Assembly: GCA_016215405.1 (NCBI GenBank)
Contig: JACRJQ010000007.1
Location: forward strand, 71,297-135,296
Direction: 5' to 3'
From: Candidatus Tayloriibacteriota bacterium
GTDB lineage: Bacteria; Patescibacteriota; Minisyncoccia; Phycocordibacterales; UBA6065
Length of the DNA: 64,000 bases
The position numbers and the translations under genes are program-made. Of the stretch, positions 3,728 to 59,865 are shown in pieces; position 1 is the stretch's first letter, and every line of letters starts with the position of its first letter. The notes beneath the pieces were generated by a model, which had not been told where the DNA came from, ran no database searches, and saw nothing but the letters and a program-made list of their open reading frames with translations.

Positions 3728-4645
3728 CTAGACCTTCAGATATCTTCGTACCGCGAGATAGCTCGATATAGCGCCGAGAAGGATGCCTACGCCTATGATA
3801 AGGGCTGACACCTGGGCGAAATTGGCGGTGTAGTAGTCGAAAAGGCTGAATCCGCTGAAGAAGGTCTCAGTGATGGACGACACCCAGTACGTCACCGGAT
3901 AGAAGACGACGAGCGTGGCGAGAGCCGACACGACGCCGTACATGACGCCCGAAATCACGAACGGCCCGCGGATGTAGCGGTTAGACGCGCCCACGAGCCT
4001 CATCACCGATATCTCCTCTCGGGCGATGTAGATGGCGAGGCGTATGGTGTTGAGCGTGATGAGGATGGATATCGCGATAAGGACTATCGTTATAGCGAGG
4101 CCTATCTTCCTCGATCCGTCGATCATCCTCGTAAGAGAGTCGATAGCCGCCTTATTCTGATAGTAATTAACCTTGTCTATGAATTGGCCGTTCTCGCCGG
4201 ACTCCGAATCGAGGAATTTCGCGATGCCTTCATACTGCGAGGTCTCTTTCGCCCTTATGTTGAGGATCGCGCCAAGAGGGTTCTCTCCGAGCTCTTCGAG
4301 GGCCTGAAGGGTTATCTCGTCGTTCTCATGCTGAGCCTTGAAATTCTCGAGAGCCTGGTCGCGCGAGACGTATTCGACCTGAGCGACCTCGGGAAGAGCC
4401 TCGACCTTGTTCCTGAGCGCGAGTATCTCCTCCTCGTCGGCCGAAGGCGCGAAGTAGACGTTCACGTCGACCTTGGAGCGTATCTCGTCGAGAGACGAAT
4501 TGAGGAGAGCGCTCGCGAACATGAGAGAGCCCAGAACGAAAAGGGTCAACGTCATGATGAGGACCGAAGAGAGCGACACGAAGCCGTTCCTCCAGAACGA
4601 CACGAAGCCTGATTTTATGATGCGTCGGGTGTTGAGCCAGAACAT
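3728..4645 (-). CDS. ftsX: cell division ABC transporter permease FtsX
   Basis: 305 aa; 4 TM helices with a large periplasmic loop; immediately downstream of ftsE. Confidence 0.8.
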   Translation of the reverse strand: MFWLNTRRIIKSGFVSFWRNGFVSLSSVLIMTLTLFVLGSLMFASALLNSSLDEIRSKVDVNVYFAPSADEEEILALRNKVEALPEVAQVEYVSRDQALENFKAQHENDEITLQALEELGENPLGAILNIRAKETSQYEGIAKFLDSESGENGQFIDKVNYYQNKAAIDSLTRMIDGSRKIGLAITIVLIAISILITLNTIRLAIYIAREEISVMRLVGASNRYIRGPFVISGVMYGVVSALATLVVFYPVTYWVSSITETFFSGFSLFDYYTANFAQVSALIIGVGILLGAISSYLAVRRYLKV

Positions 4646-4656
4646 GGTGTTATCGA

Positions 4657-5337
4657 TTATATAGCGTATCTTCCCTCCTTGTCGTCGCGAACGAGCCTCC
4701 CCTTCTCCATGGTGATGACCCTCTTGCCTATGTTCTCTACTACGCCTTTATTGTGCGTCGTAAGGACGACCGTCGTGCCGAGGTCGTTTATCTTCTTCAG
4801 TATCTGGACGATCTCGTACGTATTGACCGGATCGAGGTTTCCCGTCGGCTCGTCCGCGATAATGACGTCCGGCTGGTTCACGATGGCGCGGGCGATCGCC
4901 ACGCGCTGCCTCTCTCCTCCCGAAAGCTCCCTCGGAAAGCTCCAGATCTTCCTGCCGAGGTCTACGAGGTCGAGCACATGCGGCACGTCCGACGCTATCT
5001 CGTCGTCGGAGCGTCCCGCCGCCTCCATGGCGAATGCGATGTTCTCGAATACCGTCTTGCCGGGAATAAGCCTGAAATCCTGAAAGACCGTGCCAAAGCG
5101 ACGGCGGTATTCCGGGACGTGCTTATCCTTGAGCTTGTGGACGTTCACGGACTCGAAAAGGACCGATCCTTTGGTCGGTTTGTCCTCGGCGAGGATCATC
5201 TTTATAAGGGTCGTCTTTCCCGCGCCGGAATGCCCTACGATCGAGACGAATTCCTTCGGCTCTATCTTGAGGGTCACGTCTTCGAGGGCGACCGTGTCGT
5301 CCGAGTATATTTTGGTTACTTTATCGAAATAGATCAT
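4657..5337 (-). CDS. ftsE: cell division ATP-binding protein FtsE
   Basis: Walker A GHSGAGKTT, ABC signature LSGGERQRV, Walker B VIIADEPT. The ORF-track 5' extension is arginine-rich junk; the start is reassigned to MIYFDKV. Confidence 0.9.
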   Translation of the reverse strand: MIYFDKVTKIYSDDTVALEDVTLKIEPKEFVSIVGHSGAGKTTLIKMILAEDKPTKGSVLFESVNVHKLKDKHVPEYRRRFGTVFQDFRLIPGKTVFENIAFAMEAAGRSDDEIASDVPHVLDLVDLGRKIWSFPRELSGGERQRVAIARAIVNQPDVIIADEPTGNLDPVNTYEIVQILKKINDLGTTVVLTTHNKGVVENIGKRVITMEKGRLVRDDKEGRYAI

Positions 5338-5419
5338 AGAAGGTCGTATTGGGGACGGCAGAGCATCCGATGCCAGAAAGCGGCATGCATGTATTCTATC
5401 ATATCCCATACCCCTTATT

Positions 5420-6289
5420 TTAAAGGGTTTTCTCGGCTTCGATGAAGATATCGATGTCCCCCTCGAGCACCGCGTCGACGTTCGACGTCTCGACGTCGGT
5501 CCTGTGGTCCTTGACCATCTTATAGGGGTGCAGAACGTAAGAGCGTATCTGATTGCCCCATTCGATGTCGGTAGTCTTGGAGATATACATGCCCTTCTCT
5601 TTGGCCTGGCGCTCCTCTTCTTGCCTCTTATAGAGCTTGGCTTGGAGGATGTCCATGGCGCGCGACCTGTTATCCGCCTGAGAGCGCTCAGAATCCACAT
5701 GGACAGCGATCTTCGTCGGAAGATGCACGAGCCGGACCGCGGTCTCGCGCTTGTTCACGTTCTGGCCGCCGGGACCGGACGACCGCGCGAATTCGAGCCG
5801 TATGTCGTCGGGATTCACGACGAATTTCTCGGCCTTCTCGAACTTCGGGATCACCTCTACGAGCGAGAACGAAGTATGGCGCTGCGACTTCGCGTTAAAG
5901 GGTGATATGCGGACGAGCCGGTGCACGCCCGATTCGTTCTTGAGGATGCCGTAGGCGCCCTTCCCCTCTATCTCGACCGTGACGTTCCTGTAGCCGCCGT
6001 GGTCGTTCTGGTTCTGATGGAGGAATCTCAAAGACCACCCCTTGCGGTCGAAGTACCTCATATACATCTCGAAAAGGATGCGCGAGAAGTCTTCGGCATC
6101 GTCGCCTCCCGCGCCGGAGAATATGGTCATTATGGCGTTCCCTTTCTCGTACTTTTCGACCTCCGCCATCTCGGATTTGAGCTGATTGAGCTCCTTGAGG
6201 ATCGATTGCGCTCGGTCCTTATTCTCCCAGAACTCGGCGTCGGCCATAAGGACCTCTATCTCCGCTATCCTTTTCTGCTTTTCTGACAT
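5420..6289 (-). CDS. prfB: peptide chain release factor 2
   Basis: SPF tripeptide anticodon motif (RISPFNAKSQRHTSF) and GGQ motif (SGPGGQNVNK); 289 aa; no upstream frame that would indicate a programmed +1 frameshift. Confidence 0.85.
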   Translation of the reverse strand: MSEKQKRIAEIEVLMADAEFWENKDRAQSILKELNQLKSEMAEVEKYEKGNAIMTIFSGAGGDDAEDFSRILFEMYMRYFDRKGWSLRFLHQNQNDHGGYRNVTVEIEGKGAYGILKNESGVHRLVRISPFNAKSQRHTSFSLVEVIPKFEKAEKFVVNPDDIRLEFARSSGPGGQNVNKRETAVRLVHLPTKIAVHVDSERSQADNRSRAMDILQAKLYKRQEEERQAKEKGMYISKTTDIEWGNQIRSYVLHPYKMVKDHRTDVETSNVDAVLEGDIDIFIEAEKTL

Positions 6290-6788: not shown

Positions 6789-6861
6789 GCCACCTTAGCT
6801 CAGCTGGTAGAGCAATACTTTCGTAAAGTAGAGGTCCCCGGTTCGATCCCGGGAGGTGGCT
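6789..6861 (+). tRNA. tRNA-Thr (anticodon CGT)
   Basis: Acceptor GCCACCT/AGGTGGC, anticodon loop TTCGTAA, T-arm CCCGGTTCGATCCCGGG. Confidence 0.85.
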
Positions 6862-6950
6862 CAGAAAACTAAAAGCCGCTTTTGCGGACTTTTAGTTTTC
6901 TGAGCCACCTAAGAGCGATCGAATCGCTCTGTCCCGGGATCGAAGAGGTT
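6851..6950. repeat. tRNA 3'-flank mirror element (hairpin incorporating the acceptor 3' strand, plus an antisense copy of acceptor and T-arm)
   Basis: aggtggctcagaaaactaaaag-[ccgcttttgcgg]-cttttagttttctgagccacct is a 22-bp perfect inverted repeat; a downstream gagcgatcgaatcgctc hairpin follows; then cccgggatcgaa is the reverse complement of the tRNA T-loop/stem. Confidence 0.6.
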
Positions 6951-6963
6951 CTCCTATATTTCT

Positions 6964-7115
6964 GAGGGATTCCTATTCCGAAGAAATGGGAAACCTGTAC
7001 TGCGGCTGTAAGCCGAGATTCTCGGGAGGAATCGAAAGGGTTCCCTGTTGTCTTCGAGGACTTCTATCCGAGAAAACTGAAACCTATACTGCCGCCGTAG
7101 GCAAAGACCCTCGGA
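6964..7115 (+). repeat. two imperfect tandem repeats of about 62 nt (period 89)
   Basis: gagggattcctattccgaagaaatgggaaacctgtactgcggctgtaagccgagattctcggg versus gaggacttctatccgagaaaactgaaacctatactgccgccgtaggcaaagaccctcgga. Confidence 0.5.
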
Positions 7116-8998: not shown

Positions 8999-9012
8999 CC
9001 ACCAGAGAGACG

Positions 9013-9046
9013 AAAAAGCCGGAGCATAACGCCCCGGCTTTTTCGT
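9013..9046. terminator. bidirectional intrinsic terminator
   Basis: aaaaagccggagcataacgccccggcttttt, a hairpin flanked by an A-run and a T-run, between convergent genes. Confidence 0.5.
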
Positions 9047-9064
9047 CTCGCGCCCTACTCCGTC

Positions 9065-9262: not shown

Positions 9263-9424
9263 GCGTGTTATCGATAACCTTCCTAAATGGAAGCTACAGA
9301 TAGTACGTAAGCGCCGCAGGAGAGGTGTCAGGGCGGGACTCGGTCACAGGTCGTTTTCTGCTGAAAACGCCCGCCACCCCGCCTCGCGCTTTACGGATAT
9401 GCTCCCAGCATATCCTCACGCTCC

Positions 9425-9487
9425 GGCTTTCGAGTCCCTACTCCGCAAAGCAAAAAGCGTCCGAGAATGGACGCTTTTTGCTTTATG
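9425..9487. repeat. tRNA 3'-flank mirror element downstream of tRNA-Asp
   Basis: 16-bp perfect hairpin aaagcaaaaagcgtcc/ggacgctttttgcttt adjacent to the tRNA 3' end; ttcgagtccc at about 9429-9438 is an antisense copy of the tRNA-Asp T-loop/stem. Confidence 0.5.
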
Positions 9488-10450: not shown

Positions 10451-11221
10451 TCAGGCGGCTTTTCGCTGTCCGATCTCGAAATCGAGATAGACCGGAGAGT
10501 GGTCGGAGACGACATCGGGAAGGACTTTGAAGTCTTTCACTTCTATGTCCTCCGATACGAAGACGTAGTCAGCAAACCGATGCGGCTTCTTGTAGACCTC
10601 CGTGCGGGTCGAAGCGATGCCGTATTCCTTTATGAGATTCCTCATTCCCGCCCTTTCGATCACGCGTATGCTCTCCGTATCGGGTAAAAGGTTGAAATCC
10701 CCCATGAGGATCTTCGGACAGTCGAACAGGGACATGAACCTCACGATGGCCTCTGACTGAAGGAGCCTCTTCGAGCTATCGCCCTTCCCCTCAGGACGGT
10801 GTGTGAGATGGGCATTGAGGACGAGTAGGCTCTTTCCCTTCATCTCGATCTCAAGCCACTGGAGCTTTCTGTTATGGTCGCCCTTGCCGTCATAATCGCC
10901 TCCATGCCAGTCGCCGCGGGCCACGAGAGCCTCTCCGAAGCTTATGACCTTGATATCTGGCCTCATAAAAGCCGAGAGGCCATATATGTCCCGAAAGGTC
11001 GGACAGAAATAATCCTTATAGGGGGTAAGGAGGGCCGAAAGCGTCTGGTTAAGGGAGAAATCGGGTTTCTCGTATCCGCCGATGGCGACGAACTCCTCTT
11101 CCTTCTTCGAGTTATAGACCTCTTGAAAAAGCCAGAGGTCTACGTCGCGATAGCGATTGAAAAATCCCGAGAAACGATCCTTCATCCTGCCGCCCCAGGC
11201 GTTAAGCGTCACGATCTTCAT
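10451..11221 (-). CDS. endonuclease/exonuclease/phosphatase (EEP) family protein
   Basis: 256 aa; MGDFN and SDHSPV catalytic motifs typical of EEP-fold enzymes. Confidence 0.7.
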   Translation of the reverse strand: MKIVTLNAWGGRMKDRFSGFFNRYRDVDLWLFQEVYNSKKEEEFVAIGGYEKPDFSLNQTLSALLTPYKDYFCPTFRDIYGLSAFMRPDIKVISFGEALVARGDWHGGDYDGKGDHNRKLQWLEIEMKGKSLLVLNAHLTHRPEGKGDSSKRLLQSEAIVRFMSLFDCPKILMGDFNLLPDTESIRVIERAGMRNLIKEYGIASTRTEVYKKPHRFADYVFVSEDIEVKDFKVLPDVVSDHSPVYLDFEIGQRKAA

Positions 11222-11386
11222 AGGGAAAGTATAGCAAAAGACGCCTTACTGGACGTTTGTCATACATCTTGCGGAAGGGTTTGAATTATCATGAATCGCT
11301 AAGTCTTTTGCTGCAGAAGCCAGCAAAAGCCCAAGTGTTCGCGATCCCGCCTCGCCCGTCTCGCTTCGCTCGACATGGCTGCGACC

Positions 11387-11477
11387 TTCAAATCCAACCC
11401 GACGAACGTCTCAGGCGTTCGTCTCCCGCAACAAGCATGAAAAAAACCGCTATCAATAGCGGTTTTTTTCATGCTTG

Positions 11478-11484
<7 letters not shown>
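11387..11484. repeat. tRNA 3'-flank mirror element downstream of tRNA-fMet
   Basis: Perfect palindrome gcaacaagcatgaaaaaaaccgctat/atagcggtttttttcatgcttgttgc includes the tRNA 3' end; an antisense acceptor copy cccgcaaca; a gacgaacg...cgttcgtc hairpin insertion; an antisense T-arm copy ttcaaatccaaccc. Confidence 0.55.
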
Positions 11485-11551
<67 letters not shown>

Positions 11552-11641
11552 ATAGTTACTACGTAACTCCCTTAACAAAGGGGTAACGAGCATTATACCA
11601 GAGCAAAAACCCCTAATCAAGCCCGTCTGCGAGCCACAGGG

Positions 11642-17728: not shown

Positions 17729-18340
17729 TTAGGAGTCTATGGCCCTCTGGGAGATGGTCGTCTGGATGTTGAACTCGGACTTCGTCTTGCCAGTGCCCGC
17801 GTCCCCCTTAAGCGTCATCACCACCTTAGGCTGTAGCCCGTCGTTCGCCGCCGTGCCCGTCACGTAGAAGCGCAAGAGGGTTATGTTTATGTCGCTCGCC
17901 GTTATGTCCGTCGTCGAAGGTATCGTACCGTATACCCTTTTCTGTATCCTGCCAGAGACGAGGCTATATTCTATCTGATCGTTAGCGTCGGCAGAGTTAT
18001 AGTTCCCGTCGCCGTCGATATCGCGGTTCGCCTTATAGCGGAAGACCGAGCCTCCAGACTGGCAGCTCCCCGACCCGTCGCAGACGTAATTGAAGCCGAC
18101 GCGGGTGTCTCGGGCCATCGACTCCAGCGCGAAATTGAGGTTCGTCATGACTGACTTCAGCGTATGGGTCTTTTTGTTCGCCTCGACGATCGAGAACACG
18201 GAGCCGGTCGCTATGAGCATGACCATCGCGAATATGGAGACGGATACGAGGACTTCGACGAGCGTGAAAGCCCGCTCTCCCTTCCCTGCCTTAGATCGTA
18301 GATTGATGTTGTTCATACTAGTTGCATACAGCTCCCGCAT
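17729..18340 (-). CDS. prepilin-type N-terminal domain protein (minor pilin)
   Basis: GERAFTLVEVLVSVSIFAMV motif; the start is probably the internal MNNINL. Confidence 0.65.
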   Translation of the reverse strand: MRELYATSMNNINLRSKAGKGERAFTLVEVLVSVSIFAMVMLIATGSVFSIVEANKKTHTLKSVMTNLNFALESMARDTRVGFNYVCDGSGSCQSGGSVFRYKANRDIDGDGNYNSADANDQIEYSLVSGRIQKRVYGTIPSTTDITASDINITLLRFYVTGTAANDGLQPKVVMTLKGDAGTGKTKSEFNIQTTISQRAIDS

Positions 18341-19022
18341 CCACCGATACGGATATCTGACCTGTCGACTCTACGGTCACCTTCCTCTTCGTGCCCGACG
18401 GCGACGACACGCAGATCTCGGCCTTTCCGTAGCTCGTCCCCTGTATGCCGCCGGCGCGGATATAGGCGTCTGGATTAGGTCTCACGAAGGAGATATCGAC
18501 GACCGAGTTCGAGCAGTTTCCATCGACGCAGACCTTGCTTATGGCGTTACCCTTCTGTATGCGGAAGGTCTCGACGGATATGTCGCTGCCGTCGTAGACG
18601 TGGTTCGGCACGCCTCCGGACTTCACGTCTTCGAATATGAAATAGGTCGAAGGGTTGGTGAGGTCGAAATGTATCCCGTATCCCGAATCGAACTTGGTGG
18701 CGTCGGCCGAGGTCTGCCTCACGATGATGCCGTAGAACTGGGCCTGACGGACGGAGAGCGCGACCTCATAGGCGAGGTTCGTGAGGATGACGGTGCCGTT
18801 GAATTTGGAATGGTTGAAGACCGCGACCGTCGTTATGAGAGAGAATATGCTAATAGACACGAGGAGCTCGACCAAGGTGAAACCGCCTCCTGTCGCCTTT
18901 TTAGCGAGACCCTCGTTCCTTCCTGCTGAAAAGACGCTCCGCTCGCGCCGTCGCGCCGCGCAAGGTTTTCTAAAAAAGGGCTCTCGCTTGCCTAGGAAGA
19001 TGGGACGCATAGTCCTCATCAT
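18318..19022 (-). CDS. prepilin-type N-terminal domain protein (minor pilin)
   Basis: GGGFTLVELLVSISIFSLIT motif; the long leader suggests an alternative start. Confidence 0.6.
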   Translation of the reverse strand: MMRTMRPIFLGKREPFFRKPCAARRRERSVFSAGRNEGLAKKATGGGFTLVELLVSISIFSLITTVAVFNHSKFNGTVILTNLAYEVALSVRQAQFYGIIVRQTSADATKFDSGYGIHFDLTNPSTYFIFEDVKSGGVPNHVYDGSDISVETFRIQKGNAISKVCVDGNCSNSVVDISFVRPNPDAYIRAGGIQGTSYGKAEICVSSPSGTKRKVTVESTGQISVSVDAGAVCN

Positions 19023-19825
19023 TATACAGCCAAAAACGAAAGGATGGCCTGGATATCTATGCGGAAAAGGAGCGACAGGAGGAATCCGACTATCATGAAA
19101 GGCCCAAAAGGTATCTCGCTTTTAAGCCCGAGGCCTCGCCTCGACCTGATCTTTTGGATCGCCATAGCCGCGAAAGCGAAGGCCGCTCCCGTCCAGAAAG
19201 ATAGAAGGACCGAAGCGACGCCTGCAGAGAGGCCCAACGCCCAGCCGATCGAGAGCGCGAGCTTCGCGTCGCCTAATCCCATCCACGTGCCCTTCGAGAC
19301 GAGCCAGAAGAAGCCGAAGAAGGCGAAGAGCGCGGGGCCCGCCGCGAGGCGCCCGAAGTCCAAGGTTCCCGTCGCTGCCCACTCGACGCCCAAGAGCGCG
19401 AGAGCGACGGCCGCGGCGCCGTAGGAGAACTCGTCGGGGATGATCTTGTGCCGAAGGTCATAAGCCGTTATGGCGATATAGAGGAATAGAAGCGCGGCGA
19501 GCAAGGCGAAAGAGGCGACGCTGAGCGCGCCCTGCCCGGGAAGCGCCCAAAGGTACGCGGCGAGTGCCGCGAGCCCGCCGGATATCTCGATCGCGGGATA
19601 TTGCCAAGATATCTTCGAGCGGCAACCCTTGCACCTGCCTCCCTGAAAGAGGAACGAGAAGATCGGGACGAGCTCGTACCAAGAGAGCGTCTTTCCGCAG
19701 GAGAAGCACTTCGACCTGCCGCGCGAGATCGACGCGCCTGTATCGAAGCGCAAGACGACGACGTTAAGGAAGCTCCCGATGATGGCGCCGAATACGAATA
19801 TGGAGGCGAAGATGAAGTGGTCCAT
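19022..19825 (-). CDS. pilD: prepilin peptidase (A24 family)
   Basis: 267 aa; N-terminal Zn-binding CxxC...CxxC (CFSCGKTL...CKGCRSK) and polytopic membrane domain. Confidence 0.85.
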   Translation of the reverse strand: MDHFIFASIFVFGAIIGSFLNVVVLRFDTGASISRGRSKCFSCGKTLSWYELVPIFSFLFQGGRCKGCRSKISWQYPAIEISGGLAALAAYLWALPGQGALSVASFALLAALLFLYIAITAYDLRHKIIPDEFSYGAAAVALALLGVEWAATGTLDFGRLAAGPALFAFFGFFWLVSKGTWMGLGDAKLALSIGWALGLSAGVASVLLSFWTGAAFAFAAMAIQKIRSRRGLGLKSEIPFGPFMIVGFLLSLLFRIDIQAILSFLAV

Positions 19826-20870: not shown

Positions 20871-21033
20871 AACCCTTATTTTTAAGCTTAATTCCTATGT
20901 GGATAAGTGGGCGCTCCGCAGGTTAGCCTGATTTTTCGCTGCGGAGTACAAGTATCCCTCGGAGGTAACTCCTCGGGCATGTCCTCGCTCAAAACCAGGC
21001 TAATCTGACTCCGCTTAGGTGGAATGGAGATAG

Positions 21034-21067
21034 AAAGCCCCGATTCGCATAGCGAATCGGGGCTTTC
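21034..21067 (-). terminator. intrinsic terminator after pilC
   Basis: aaagccccgattcgc-ata-gcgaatcggggcttt perfect hairpin, T-rich 3' on the minus strand. Confidence 0.5.
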
Positions 21068-21092
21068 TTGCCGTCTCTCCTCTCTCGCCTCG

Positions 21093-30833: not shown

Positions 30834-30919
30834 ATATTAAGCGCGCTTCTATGTCGCTAATAGTAGCAGGTATAAGGAGAGGTATCGAGGGCGGGGTTCG
30901 AACGCGAGCCTTCATTTGG

Positions 30920-31005
30920 CGGAGACGGAGAGAATTTCGGTCCTTACAGGACCAGTACCCCGATTGGCGCGAGTACGCGGCTCAATCGGGCTTCGAATCT
31001 CTCAC
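30920..31005. repeat. 86-bp direct repeat, copy 1 (duplicated tRNA-Ser mirror element)
   Basis: Identical to 31076-31161 by eye. Begins with ggagacggagaga, antisense of the tRNA-Ser 3' end; ends with ttcgaatctctcac, antisense of the T-loop/stem; two internal hairpins. Confidence 0.8.
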
Positions 31006-31075
31006 ACCCCTATCGATGATTCGGTCACAGGTTTTCGCTTGCTAGCGAAACCCGCGACCCCGCCTCGCGCCGTCG

Positions 31076-31161
31076 CGGAGACGGAGAGAATTTCGGTCCT
31101 TACAGGACCAGTACCCCGATTGGCGCGAGTACGCGGCTCAATCGGGCTTCGAATCTCTCAC
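31076..31161. repeat. 86-bp direct repeat, copy 2 (tRNA-Ser mirror element)
   Basis: Same 86 bp as copy 1, period 156. Followed by a gcaggcgtaccacgcctgc hairpin and a sense-strand ctcgtctccgcca. Confidence 0.8.
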
Positions 31162-31227
31162 GCAGGCGTACCACGCCTGCTCGTCTCCGCCAAACAAAAA
31201 ACGGCACTTTCGTGCTCGTTTTTGTAT

Positions 31228-31319
31228 TGGCGGAGACGGAGAGATTCGAACTCTCGAACCAGTTTTACCCGGTTAACACCTTAGCAAGGTGCCGCTTTCG
31301 ACCACTCAGCCACGTCTCC
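31228..31319 (-). tRNA. tRNA-Ser (anticodon GCT), CCA encoded
   Basis: Type II tRNA. Acceptor GGAGACG/CGTCTCC, anticodon loop TTGCTAA, long variable arm, T-arm CGAGAGTTCGAATCTCTC, G73 plus CCA. Confidence 0.85.
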
Positions 31320-41898: not shown

Positions 41899-41972
41899 GC
41901 GCCTATAGCTCAGTTGGTTAGAGCATCGAGCTTATACCTCGAGGGTCCTTGGTTCGAGTCCAAGTAGGCGCA
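41899..41972 (+). tRNA. tRNA-Ile (anticodon TAT)
   Basis: Acceptor GCGCCTA/TAGGCGC, anticodon stem TCGAG/CTCGA with loop CTTATAC, T-arm CTTGGTTCGAGTCCAAG. Confidence 0.8.
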
Positions 41973-41980
41973 CCGACATA

Positions 41981-45105: not shown

Positions 45106-45495
45106 GGGGATGATCGGCCTAGACATGCGATTCCCTTCCCTTTGCGCGCGATAGAGCTCCGACAACTCTTTAAACTGCCGGAAACCACAAATGCTAAATC
45201 CGTTAAATCGCCGTTTACGGCTAACGATTTTTCATTCGCTTACGCAATAGCCTAAGCGACATCGCACTCCTCGCATTCCTGGCGCGGGAGAGAGCGGTGT
45301 TATAGATCCAGGATAGAGCCCGACCCGCTTCGGTCCCGCTCGAAAGGCTTCGGCCTCATGAAGCTCGGCGCCCGCGCGTTCTGGAACTCTTAGAGCGCGT
45401 CCGCTTAAATCCGCCTTCGGCGGAAAGACTTCCTACATCGCGTAGACACAATCGGAAATTTCGCTTGCACCCGAGTTCGATTCTCGGCATCTCCA
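45106..45495 (+). ncRNA. ssrA: tmRNA (ssrA), one-piece; encoded tag ANDFSFAYAIA
   Basis: Begins GGGGAUGAU 15 nt after smpB. The 5' GGGGAUG pairs with the 3' CAUCUCC including a G3-U70 wobble and A73 discriminator (alanine identity). T-arm CCGAGUUCGAUUCUCGG precedes it. An in-frame GCU AAC GAU UUU UCA UUC GCU UAC GCA AUA GCC UAA (45220-45255) resembles the E. coli ANDENYALAA tag. Confidence 0.75.
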
Positions 45496-45590
45496 CAAAG
45501 CAAGTCGCCCGCAAGGGCGGCTTTTGCTTTGTGGAGATGAGTCGTGCCGGGGGGGGCACGACGTCCGAGAATCGAAGCCCGGTTGAGCAT
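45488..45590. repeat. tRNA-like 3'-flank mirror element downstream of tmRNA
   Basis: catctccacaaagcaag-[tcgcccgcaagggcgg]-cttttgctttgtggagatg long hairpin including the acceptor 3' strand; then gtcgtgcc-gggggg-ggcacgac hairpin; then ccgagaatcgaa, antisense of the tmRNA T-arm. Confidence 0.5.
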
Positions 45591-45808
45591 AATTTATGAG
45601 CAAAGCGAAGTAAATTATCCAACCGCGGGTACTGGTCCTGTAAGGACCGATAAGCGCACTCGCGATCTCGGCTCCACTGCACCATCACCCTTATCCGCGA
45701 TTGGTATCATATATGATACCAATCGTAATCTAACGGTCTGAGGGATCGCGCGTAACCGATGCTCAGACAAATGTATTACACTAAAATGCGAGAACATAAC
45801 ATCCACAT

Positions 45809-47937: not shown

Positions 47938-49599
47938 ATGAAGAAAGCATTTCAGATAAGCATAGCGGGCACCCTGTTCTCCATCGAGGAGGACGCCTAT
48001 CAGCGCCTCGACGGCTATATATCGCAGGTAAAGAGGCACTTCGCGCAGACCGCAGGATCGGAAGAGATCGTCCGAGACATAGAGGCGAGGATCGCCGAAC
48101 AGCTCCTCGACGCGAAGAGGGCCGTCGTCTCGATCATGGAAGTAGACGCGGTCATCGCCACGATGGGCAAAGTCGAGGACTTCGAAGACGGTATCGGGGA
48201 CGAAGCATCCCCCGAGGCCGAATCGAAGCAGAAGAAGCTCTATAGGGATTCCGACGACAGGGTCATAGCGGGCGTCTGCTCCGGCCTCGCGCGCTATTTC
48301 GGGACGGACCCTCTCTGGGTGCGCATCGCCTTCGTCGTCCTCATGTTCGTCCTCAACGGGTTCCCTCTATTCGCCTATATCGTCTTGTGGATAGTCATGC
48401 CCGAAGCGAAGACGGCCGCGCAGAAGCTCGAGATGTCGGGAAGCCCGGTCAACCTCGAGACCTTAAGCGAGAACATAAAGGAGAAGGTCGATAAAGCAAG
48501 CCAAAGGCACGGCTCGACCATACGGCGCATCCTCTCCGCGCCCTTCATCGCCCTTAAGGCGATAGCGACGTTCGTCCGCAAGGCCCTATTCCCTCTCGTG
48601 CGCATAGCGTTCGGCCTCGCTCTCGGCGTCATGACCCTCGGCGCCATCCTCGCGAGCTCGTTCGGAGCGCCGTTCTTCCTTACCTCTCCGGAGAGGCTCG
48701 CGGATTTCCCTATAACAGAGGCAATCCCGCTCGCCGCCCTCTACGCCGCGGTCATGAGCGCCTACTTCGTCGTCGTGATACCGGCAGCGCTCCTCTTCGC
48801 CTTCGCGCTCTACGTGCTCCGAAAGAAGACCGTCCTAAGCGGAGGCGCTATCGCCGGATTCCTGGGGCTCTGGCTCGTATCGATAGTCAGCCTCGGCGCG
48901 TCGGCGGCCGTCTCTGTCGCGTCATACGAGAGCTATACGAGGACGAGCCCCCTCTTCGAGATCGAGACGCGCGACATAGCGATCGAAGGCCCTCTCACCG
49001 GCCTTTACGCCTCCTTCGGGCAGAAGGTGACTATCGTCCGAGGCGACGAGGTGTCCCTCACGGCCACAGGCAGGAGGAAGGACCTCGATTCGGTGAGCGC
49101 GGAGAACAGGGACGGCGTCCTCTCGGTCTCGCAAGGGCGAAAGAAGGACTCGTGCCTATTCTGCGACGCGAGGAATCCCGACCTCGTCCTCACGGTCCCA
49201 AGCCTCTCGTCCATAAAGGCGGGGCACGGATCGGCCGTCGAGTCGGAGTCGCTCTGGAAGTCTGACGGGCGCTTCGAGATCGAACTCCTCTTTGGATCGA
49301 AAGTTGATATGAAGATAGAGGCCGACAGCGTGGTCGCGAAGGCCGAGCACGGATCGCGCCTCAAGCTCGAAGGGACCGCGAAGACGGCGAGCTTCGAAGC
49401 GCTCTTCGGGAGCACCATAGACGCTCTCGGCCTTATAGCAGATGACGTCTCGGCCCGGACGGAATTCGGAGCGAGTATAACCGCCTCGGCGTCGAAGACC
49501 CTCGACGCGCGGGCATCGAACGGCGGCATCATCCGATACGACGGCGACCCGACGATCGAAAAGGGTGAAGACTTCGGAGGAGAGATAGACAAGATCTAA
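47938..49599 (+). CDS. PspC domain-containing membrane protein with a C-terminal beta-rich extracellular domain
   Basis: YRDSDDRVIAGVCSGLARYFGTDPLWVRIAFVV PspC motif; 4 TM; follows PadR (common pairing). Confidence 0.75.
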   Translation: MKKAFQISIAGTLFSIEEDAYQRLDGYISQVKRHFAQTAGSEEIVRDIEARIAEQLLDAKRAVVSIMEVDAVIATMGKVEDFEDGIGDEASPEAESKQKKLYRDSDDRVIAGVCSGLARYFGTDPLWVRIAFVVLMFVLNGFPLFAYIVLWIVMPEAKTAAQKLEMSGSPVNLETLSENIKEKVDKASQRHGSTIRRILSAPFIALKAIATFVRKALFPLVRIAFGLALGVMTLGAILASSFGAPFFLTSPERLADFPITEAIPLAALYAAVMSAYFVVVIPAALLFAFALYVLRKKTVLSGGAIAGFLGLWLVSIVSLGASAAVSVASYESYTRTSPLFEIETRDIAIEGPLTGLYASFGQKVTIVRGDEVSLTATGRRKDLDSVSAENRDGVLSVSQGRKKDSCLFCDARNPDLVLTVPSLSSIKAGHGSAVESESLWKSDGRFEIELLFGSKVDMKIEADSVVAKAEHGSRLKLEGTAKTASFEALFGSTIDALGLIADDVSARTEFGASITASASKTLDARASNGGIIRYDGDPTIEKGEDFGGEIDKI

Positions 49600-49602
49600 T
49601 GA

Positions 49603-49632
49603 AAAGCCGTCAGCCTCTGGCTGACGGCTTTT
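49603..49632 (+). terminator. intrinsic terminator after the PspC-domain gene
   Basis: gaaaagccgtcagcc-tctg-gctgacggcttttc perfect hairpin plus T-run. Confidence 0.6.
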
Positions 49633-49661
49633 CATTTGACTTAGGCCGTCTGGTCCTTACT

Positions 49662-59757: not shown

Positions 59758-59865
59758 GCTATCAAGTGTATCCGCAAAACAGAGATTAGAGAATCTTTTG
59801 CAAAACCGCTTTTTATCGTGAAAAGAAAAGCCCGCGCCCTAGGGCGCGGGCTTTTCTTTTGAGGG

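Follow-up and report, generated by a model that had tools for sequence, protein, structure and literature searches.

Genomic islands that are placed in tRNA genes by tyrosine integrases of the T-loop crossover class leave the gene intact: the segment from the T-loop to the 3′ end is supplied by the element, the displaced 3′ end persists as a direct repeat, and repeated insertion produces tandem arrays. In the attP(+) site of CTX-phi and the attC sites of integrons, two inverted segments of one strand pair and so rebuild the chromosomal target in double-stranded form; the strand is marked by extrahelical features, and the target is regenerated, again with arrays as an outcome. Folded elements of the CTX-phi/IMEX type have a single-stranded circular form and are integrated by Xer or another tyrosine recombinase. 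Multi-copy, non-coding, hairpin-rich and modular repeats such as REP/BIME, IS200/IS605-derived PATEs, BOX, Correia and MITEs are often associated with terminators and occur as nested or truncated copies. The 3′ flank of the initiator tRNA (tRNA-fMet) gene in a 64,000-nucleotide stretch of a Candidatus Tayloriibacteriota genome (contig JACRJQ010000007.1, positions 71,297 to 135,296; the whole stretch is called the window below) is reminiscent of each of these systems. The flank is a sequence-degenerate copy of a family of small (about 110–210 nt), non-coding, structured repeat elements. The family is restricted to Patescibacteria and apparently undescribed in Rfam 15 and the searchable literature, where no description of the tRNA-flank element was found. 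A tentative reading, favored here, is that the segment represents a non-autonomous insertion element that targets the T-loop or 3′ end of tRNA genes and restores the gene.

The resemblance to each system is partial. Compared with tRNA-targeting islands, the element is only about 110–210 nt long, has no integrase, and carries an exact inverted copy of the target together with a conserved two-hairpin core; moreover, a second class of the element is inserted at the extreme 3′ end of the tRNA or in its trailer. Compared with CTX-phi attP(+) and integron attC, the target is a tRNA gene rather than dif or attI, and the likeness is one of architecture alone, an analogy only. Unlike REP, PATE or MITE repeats, the elements take their flanking helix from the reverse complement of the local tRNA rather than from fixed terminal repeats, and they are strictly co-oriented with the tRNA genes. 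Read in the direction of the tRNA-fMet gene, the locus comprises the following features:

11592-11620, minus strand: promoter-like site of tRNA-fMet, TTGATT-17-TATAAT preceded by TG (consensus scan, predicted only)
11478-11551, minus strand: initiator tRNA-Met(CAU) (ARAGORN; Rfam tRNA, 63.3 bits)
11425-11484, no strand assigned: long hairpin S, a 29-bp perfect palindrome (inverted-repeat search, shuffles)
11440-11469, no strand assigned: inner part of S, composed of A7, the 7-bp stem CCGCTAT/ATAGCGG and T7 (read directly from the sequence)
11401-11423, minus strand: H1, an 8-bp hairpin in the mirror strand, GACGAACG / CGTTCGTC, with a 7-nt loop
11387-11400, minus strand: perfectly complementary to 11484-11497 over 14 nt; mirrors the T-loop, the 3′ strand of the T-stem and the first two bases of the acceptor
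11305-11329, minus strand: 9-bp perfect hairpin, CTTTTGCTG/CAGCAAAAG, arms 11305-11313 / 11321-11329
11283-11382, minus strand: degenerate core of the flank (covariance model R1, 9.9 bits)
11268-11285, minus strand: decayed direct repeat, T-loop to discriminator, TTCAAACCCTTCCGCAAG (pattern search)

The tRNA gene is identified as an initiator by its non-paired 1:72 position and A11:U24 pair, as the sequence-only reading had proposed, and does not encode CCA. Behind it come its trailer with the terminator-like hairpin, the mirror of the trailer and acceptor strand, H1, and then the mirror covering the T-stem 3′ strand and T-loop. The order is completed by some 100 nt rich in hairpins, the direct repeat, and the promoter region of the next gene. 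That gene encodes an Exo_endo_phos protein, and GatA lies upstream. Hairpin S (arms 11425-11453 and 11456-11484, separated by a 2-nt spacer) pairs the 3′ end of the tRNA, including its last 7 nt (11478-11484), and the trailer with their own exact reverse complement. The sequence-only reading had recognized this palindrome, although at a length of 26 rather than 29 bp, as well as the antisense acceptor copy that lies within it. At 29 bp, it is the longest perfect inverted repeat of the window, compared with maxima of 9–11 bp in five block shuffles. When the 24-nt H1 insert is disregarded, the plus-strand copy is an exact copy of the last 21 nt of tRNA-fMet plus the trailer, so that the left arm faithfully reproduces, in reverse complement, the stretch running from the T-loop across the acceptor strand and the trailer. 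H1 itself is offset by 1–2 nt from the junction between acceptor and T-arm (65/66). Predicted folding of the minus strand from 11500 to 11262 yields one long hairpin with H1 as a side branch (−117 kcal/mol, z = −10.2).

The inner part of S (CCGCTAT-tg/ca-ATAGCGG, with A7 before and T7 after) looks like an ordinary bidirectional intrinsic terminator. Its 30 nt, consisting of the A-tract, a 7-bp stem containing G+C pairs and the T-tract, are positioned directly behind the tRNA as in a rho-independent terminator, but the stem continues to 29 bp into the tRNA and then for 14 more past H1, far in excess of what termination needs. A consensus terminator scan of the flank did not list the inner hairpin, probably because the stem runs on through the A and T runs.

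Downstream of the mirror, a degenerate core is found. Its P1–P2 module, GAGCGAAGCGAGACGGGCGAGGCGGG, is recognizable and P3 is ATCGC/GCGAT, while a 41-nt insert that contains the perfect hairpin at 11305-11329 replaces P4, the hairpin occupying the P4 position. Model R1, which describes the B-type core with its P1–P2 and P3–P4 hairpin domains, returns 9.9 bits for 11283-11382 on the minus strand, with an E value of about 1 for the whole window and of 0.004 when the search is limited to 251 nt. The direct repeat agrees with the tRNA at about 14 of 22 positions in a manual alignment, and the pattern TTCAAA-N3-12-CCGCAA occurs solely at 11268-11285 and in tRNA-fMet, with 0.04 occurrences expected. 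Pairing of the repeat with the mirror strand is still possible, with 8 bp in the acceptor part and 3+6 bp in the T part. While the repeat has decayed, the mirror is perfect, at 43 of 43 positions (29+14 nt).

These features place the earlier observations in one frame. Three strong hairpins had been reported within the segment 11290-11484, along with the antisense T-arm copy at 11387-11400; all are present, including H1 (loop cctgaga) and the hairpin with the cagaagc loop, but the hairpins are not independent, corresponding to modules S, H1 and the P4 equivalent of a single element. The segment likewise contains the listed features, but the element reaches beyond it, to the repeat at 11268-11285 on one side and into the tRNA to 11497 on the other. 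The degenerate core, the direct repeat and the terminator-like nature of the inner palindrome had not been described, and no function had been proposed. As a separate observation, the core contains GCGAAGC within 11355-11368 on the minus strand, and GCGAAGGC is present in many P2 hairpins of the family alignment described below. The oligonucleotide d(GCGAAGC) forms an exceptionally stable DNA mini-hairpin, which is a lead toward DNA-level folding only.

The same mirror architecture recurs elsewhere in the window, as the designation of the fMet flank as a third instance had implied. ARAGORN and Rfam identify seven tRNA genes and a single tmRNA gene in the window, and the architecture is clear at five of the six tRNA/tmRNA transcription-unit ends (fMet, Thr, Asp, Ser and tmRNA) and weak at Ile, so that the family probably occupies all six. 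Two tRNAs closely trailed by another tRNA, Thr-GGU and elongator Met, are without the element, which therefore marks the ends of transcription units. The copies outside the fMet locus are as follows:

6854-7060, plus strand: tRNA-Thr(CGU) flank, with a 22-bp perfect palindrome, H1 at 6911-6930 and a T-arm mirror at 6932-6944
9331-9440, minus strand: tRNA-Asp flank, a canonical B-type copy without H1 (R1, 72.6 bits, E 5e-19)
18902-18972, minus strand: reduced B-type core copy (R1, 24 bits, E 8e-5)
30919-31238, minus strand: tRNA-Ser flank, with hairpin S, H1 at 31160-31181 and a T mirror at 31148-31159
41899-41974, plus strand: tRNA-Ile gene, UAU anticodon, with a weak element in its 3′ flank
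45488-45682, plus strand: tmRNA flank, with hairpin S at 45488-45539, H1 at 45540-45564 and a T-arm mirror at 45564-45576

In the sense of the tRNA, the shared order consists of the tRNA 3′ end, the trailer, a bidirectional terminator-like hairpin, an exact mirror of the trailer and acceptor 3′ strand, H1 (22–26 nt) at the junction of acceptor and T-arm, an exact mirror of the T-stem 3′ strand and T-loop, the core with its two hairpins, and a repeat, in direct orientation, of the tRNA sequence that begins at C56. The Ser flank contains an 87-nt A-type unit, made up of T mirror, core and direct repeat, twice at 100% identity (31075-31161 and 30919-31005), with a truncated B-core (31012-31103) between the two units. 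The Thr flank also holds two decayed A-type units with direct repeats, and an A-type core with a decayed direct repeat is found in the tmRNA flank, where two core blocks of 22 nt (91%) and 32 nt (94%) are shared with the Ser A-type unit. At tRNA-Ile, a terminator in the 3′ flank is accompanied by a mirror of the 3′ end that is 7 nt long (CGGTGCG) and by a degenerate stretch resembling P1–P2, AGACGGAACCGAAGG. The reduced copy at 18902-18972 has no adjoining tRNA; it retains the P1–P2 part and an AGCA-loop hairpin without P3 and is situated at the junction of the open reading frames (ORFs) 18318-19022 and 19022-19825.

Other genomes provide independent evidence for the family. In one relative labelled Ca. 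Parcubacteria (L083/L084), the Exo protein is 67% identical to that of the window, and in L083 the mirror architecture is present 3′ of tRNA-Arg, tRNA-Leu and tRNA-His, with a core conserved with the Asp and Ser loci of the window. Uniqueness to this genome had been named as a ground for refutation in the sequence-only reading; the element is also found in related genomes, with its hairpins kept in position and structure. Among GatA-anchored loci of many phyla, 1.35 Mb in total, R1 matches were confined to loci labelled Parcubacteria (L083), Paceibacterota (L012) and Nomurabacteria (L005). The Ca. Paceibacterota metagenome-assembled genome contributes two matches of equal score behind tRNA-Asp, at 11033-11143 and 11362-11472 and 329 nt apart, and this pair is a tandem array in an independent genome. 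GatA-defined relatives (52–67% identity) showed no mirrors at their tRNA genes; their tRNAs have mirror scores of z ≤ 2.5, compared with z = 4.7–8.5 for the loci of the window. A comparison of Exo neighbors among relatives revealed no conserved synteny.

A search pattern for the B-core, GGGGTSGCGGG-N7-AGCA-N8-CCTGTGAC, matched exactly in 88 metagenome contigs and in no IMG/VR viral contig. In 49 of the 88 cases, the match is located within 100 nt 3′ of a tRNA gene on the same strand, mostly at a distance of 38–100 nt, and at least 15 tRNA species are represented. The 25-nt two-block mirror score was too strict for this set because most metagenome copies mirror only the T-loop and T-stem. The canonical unit begins with an optional trailer and terminator and an optional acceptor-strand mirror, followed by a T-stem/T-loop mirror ending in ...TCGAA. 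A core of 62–66 nt comes next, R-GNC-GGA-[P2 hairpin]-GA-GN'C-GG-[P3], in which P3 is GGTCGCGGG...CCTGTGACC and encloses P4 with its AGCA loop, and the unit closes with a direct repeat that starts at tRNA position C56 and continues through the 3′ end, often with CCA. These repeats sometimes carry a trailer and terminator as well, giving tandem arrays. Minimal units (L124/L139 and L138) begin directly after the tRNA and measure about 107 nt when circularly permuted, and the second class, at the extreme 3′ end or trailer, is exemplified by L104, L136 and L165. The left flank of the core ends variably in GAA, CAA, GCG or GGA; PATE or REP elements of the IS200/IS605 type have a fixed target tetranucleotide, and their subterminal hairpins are recognized by an HUH enzyme, TnpA or RAYT.

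Several metagenome loci are informative about how copies are related to their surroundings. The same trailer, terminator and core are found 3′ of three different tRNA-Leu genes (L094, L111 and L145). In L143, a unit with a tRNA-Leu mirror and tRNA-Leu repeat lies behind a tRNA-Lys gene, and between the orthologous loci L118 and L149 the tRNA, mirror and repeat are altered in concert. B-cores also occur away from tRNA genes. In L087 (about 1040-1230) and L113, the core is contained within a partial 5′ duplicate of 5S rRNA, upstream of the real 5S gene in the 23S–5S spacer, and the family is therefore associated with rRNA genes too. In L126 and L158/L166 (motif-strand positions 4572, 2117 and 6828), it is placed between umuD-like and umuC-like ORFs, the upstream one ending like an S24/LexA–UmuD peptidase and the downstream one starting with ILHVDGDSFFA, as in a Y-family polymerase. 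These cores, in an apparent SOS-mutagenesis operon, have an extra upstream hairpin (loop GAATACTTGGAG) and a flanking helix of their own.

To assess the core structure, 61 distinct units were aligned (alignment A1) and base pairs were counted against the proposed helices. Of the cells in these helices, 87% are paired, compared with 72% in shuffles (0 of 500 as high) and 37–43% in slid controls, and the covariation score is 0.352 compared with 0.124 in shuffles. The flank helix of the T-arm mirror is 72% paired and changes on both sides at all eight of its pairs. Changes on both sides are also seen at the middle pair of P1 (CG, AU, UA) and at all seven P4 pairs, whereas P3 is fixed by the search pattern and hence uninformative on covariation. 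Across 37 versions of P4, 88% of the pairs are Watson–Crick, 9% are tandem G.A and fewer than 1% are G.U. The tandem G.A pairs and two invariant G.T pairs in P3 are present on the tRNA-sense strand only, which indicates that this strand is the one that folds. The core forms a three-way junction with invariant unpaired purines, located in the GGA/GA internal loop, the AGCA loop and the GG linker. On the Ser locus, R1 scores 58.5 bits (E 6e-15). Rfam 15, with its hammerhead, HDV-like, twister, pistol, hatchet and hairpin ribozymes, yielded no relevant match at gathering score or at E values up to 10; its matches were to tRNA and to generic hairpin/miRNA and terminator-like families only.

A second conserved feature is the position of H1. 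In a strict search that required rc(66-73) and then rc(54-65) (rc, reverse complement), inserts of 22–26 nt were identified exactly at the 65/66 junction in the Thr, Ser and tmRNA loci of the window and in L099, L106, L119 (two loci) and L168. In these eight loci, from at least five genomes, H1 is an 8–10-bp hairpin of a different sequence each time, and the inserts begin with an unpaired A and have two unpaired bases at their end. The search was likewise satisfied by L103 and L109, but their 23–26-nt "insert" is the terminator region rather than H1, and some other loci have a continuous mirror with a gap of 0. Read 5′ to 3′, the mirror strand thus presents an acceptor-5′-like strand, a stub hairpin and a T-stem-5′-like strand, and in the structural model the mirror and either tRNA 3′ copy form a tRNA-like coaxial acceptor/T helix with H1 replacing the tRNA body. 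The Ser and tmRNA units are predicted to fold in this way, as acceptor stem, H1 and T-like stem (z = −6.6 and −3.5, respectively).

Such a fold is reminiscent of viral tRNA-like structures, the tRNA-like domain of tmRNA, plant mitochondrial t-elements and mascRNA, which share the coaxial acceptor/T helix with a stub and, with some of the repeats, a CCA end. In contrast to these, the T-loop of the element is either paired or has the core in its place, pairing is Watson–Crick throughout, and the structure is known here from DNA sequence only. Complementarity to the 3′-terminal acceptor and T-arm nucleotides of a tRNA is also the hallmark of the primer-binding site of retroviruses and long-terminal-repeat elements. 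However, the mirror includes the unprocessed trailer and lacks CCA, and there is no reverse transcriptase; the mirror therefore matches the gene or precursor rather than the mature tRNA. A primer-binding site of the retroviral type was rejected, the complementarity running on into the trailer.

Based on these data, a simple model would suggest that the element brings its own tRNA copy (C56 to the 3′ end), trailer and bidirectional terminator, so that the gene stays intact and terminated, while the original 3′ end would be pushed downstream and persist as the direct repeat. To a recombinase acting in trans, the folded single strand would offer the target site as a double-stranded copy. Every insertion would rebuild its target, and tandem arrays would be accounted for in this way. 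A repeat with its start at C56 behind an intact upstream gene is the signature of T-loop insertion with gene restoration, and the identical copies at non-homologous loci, the nested, truncated and tandem copies, the tRNA-Leu unit behind tRNA-Lys and the tRNA-Leu trio amount to the copy pattern of a repeat element. The structure may be needed in a folded single strand, perhaps of DNA, as hinted by the perfection of mirror and H1 where the repeat decays, the location of the element past the terminator T-run, and the near absence of G.U pairs. A more far-reaching version, considered unlikely, is that the family is a miniature mobile element of a new class, or else a replicon bearing a ribozyme, in which the mirror is a base-pairing guide re-templated at each target. 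The tRNA mimic would then insert between T-loop positions 55 and 56 and regenerate the gene, making up a target-programmable system of about 110 nt with a catalytic or recombinogenic 62–66-nt core.

A number of results weigh against insertion. No recombinase, transposase or reverse-transcriptase gene was found among the 10 window ORFs scanned, and no pair of empty and filled sites was obtained from close relatives, so mobility is deduced from the copy patterns. The near-saturation of transcription-unit ends and the concerted change between L118 and L149 would equally fit a module maintained by the host. B-cores with their own flanking helix in non-tRNA contexts suggest that the core may serve as an RNA module of general use, and not specifically as a device for insertion at tRNA genes. 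Finally, the fMet core scores just 9.9 bits, and the membership of this flank in the family is based mainly on its architecture.

The possibility of a host-maintained module at tRNA 3′ ends is less probable than insertion. In such a module, the palindrome would be a terminator and the tRNA-like fold a signal for punctuation or processing, with RNase P or RNase Z as examples of enzymes that would act on transcripts reading through, or an insulator, and copies would have spread among tRNA genes through gene conversion or duplication. Its presence at five, probably six, transcription-unit ends of the window is what this explanation would lead one to expect, as are the concerted alteration of tRNA, mirror and repeat between orthologous loci, the tRNA-like folding of the Ser and tmRNA units, and the cores inside operons and the rRNA spacer. 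It is harder to reconcile with the location of the element, which in most loci is 3′ of a strong terminator-like hairpin, with the relatives at 52–67% GatA identity whose tRNA genes lack it, and with the decay that the direct repeat has been allowed to undergo at fMet, Thr and tmRNA; function is also a difficult explanation for the copies that are truncated, nested or in tandem and for the mirror of the wrong tRNA in L143. The unit could alternatively be an independent small RNA gene, either a tRNA-like small RNA or a new self-cleaving ribozyme, which would be transcribed from the tRNA-sense strand and share the acceptor/T identity of the tRNA. The three-way junction with invariant unpaired purines, the strand-specific tandem G.A and G.U pairs and the tRNA-like fold of the unit are all consistent with such a gene, and tandem unit-length repeats recall the arrays of ribozyme-bearing satellites and retrozymes. 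Nevertheless, this alternative appears improbable: the core matches no ribozyme or small RNA family in Rfam, a terminator-like hairpin rather than an evident promoter lies upstream, a cleavage site could not be assigned, and the scarcity of G.U pairs in the variable helices would be unusual for a functional RNA.

Two further explanations invoke events at the DNA level. Fold-back or template switching at a terminator hairpin and the T-arm could generate a direct–inverted–direct triplication without any adaptive role, with intrastrand templated repair keeping the palindrome perfect. Two successive template switches would indeed be expected to leave an X - X' - X order, continuous mirrors without H1 (gap 0) exist, and long perfect palindromes that run on beyond the A and T tracts are seen at other terminators of the window as well. 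Palindrome growth leaves unexplained the conserved, covarying core of 62–66 nt, an H1 of conserved size at the same junction in eight independent loci, and units with a foreign tRNA mirror as in L143, and it is accordingly regarded as rather unlikely. Scars of integrase-borne genomic islands that have since lost their interior are far less probable still. In islands with crossover in the T-loop, the identity block usually corresponds to the T-loop (C56)-to-3′-end stretch that the direct repeat spans here, but the same architecture of about 110–170 nt at dozens of different tRNAs, with a conserved core and an inverted copy that integrase islands do not carry, does not fit such an origin. Moreover, no integrase remnants were found, only 192 nt separate the end of tRNA-fMet (11477) from the direct repeat (11285), and the B-core pattern is without a match in the viral contigs of IMG/VR.

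Other readings were rejected on more specific grounds. The only ORFs of the segment overlap the palindrome and tRNA, 11299-11472 on the minus strand (57 aa) and 11257-11496 on the plus strand (79 aa), and were taken as spurious. Rfam matches to plant or animal miRNA precursors, RNAI and similar families reflect generic long hairpins and fall far under the gathering scores. A tRNA pseudogene on the opposite strand is inconsistent with H1, which would separate the T-stem and acceptor strand there, and with the mirror, which is an exact complement, Watson–Crick throughout, including positions at which the tRNA or tmRNA itself contains a mismatch or G.U pair, rather than a copy of the 5′ strand. 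Interpretations of the core junction as a hammerhead, C/D-box K-turn, HDV-like or hatchet motif were discarded because of the wrong topology by eye and the lack of an Rfam match. The group I introns carried by patescibacterial tRNA genes interrupt the anticodon loop at 35/36 (PMC13011429) and are unrelated to the tRNA-flank element. An assembly artefact was dismissed, as the architecture recurs across independent JGI, ENA and NCBI assemblies.

More generally, if the account given here is correct, the reduced genomes of Patescibacteria would hold widespread, unannotated structured elements at tRNA, tmRNA and 5S genes. Their partial tRNA duplicates, tRNA-like folds and long palindromes could break assemblies and mislead tRNA callers, and the elements would provide terminators and replacement 3′ ends in the evolution of tRNA gene ends. 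In the 62–66-nt core, conserved and covarying but without a counterpart in Rfam, there would be a candidate nucleic-acid motif of a new kind, whether it binds protein, promotes recombination or is catalytic, and the mirror design would suggest target recognition through complementarity rather than a fixed protein–DNA code.

Additional features of the window were recorded. Just past the tmRNA-flank element, 45698-45725 is a perfect 28-bp palindrome without a spacer (CGATTGGTATCATA/TATGATACCAATCG). Long, near-perfect terminator-like palindromes are located at 9007-9049, 21032-21068, 49595-49639 and 59821-59860, with arms of 17–21 bp that reach beyond the A/T runs. In the region of the minus-strand ORFs 5420-6289 and 4657-5700, a release-factor ORF (PCRF + RF-1) starts at position 97 of the PCRF profile, with its N-terminus outside the frame. 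It overlaps the next ORF by about 280 nt, and a programmed frameshift of the prfB type or a mis-set start is possible.

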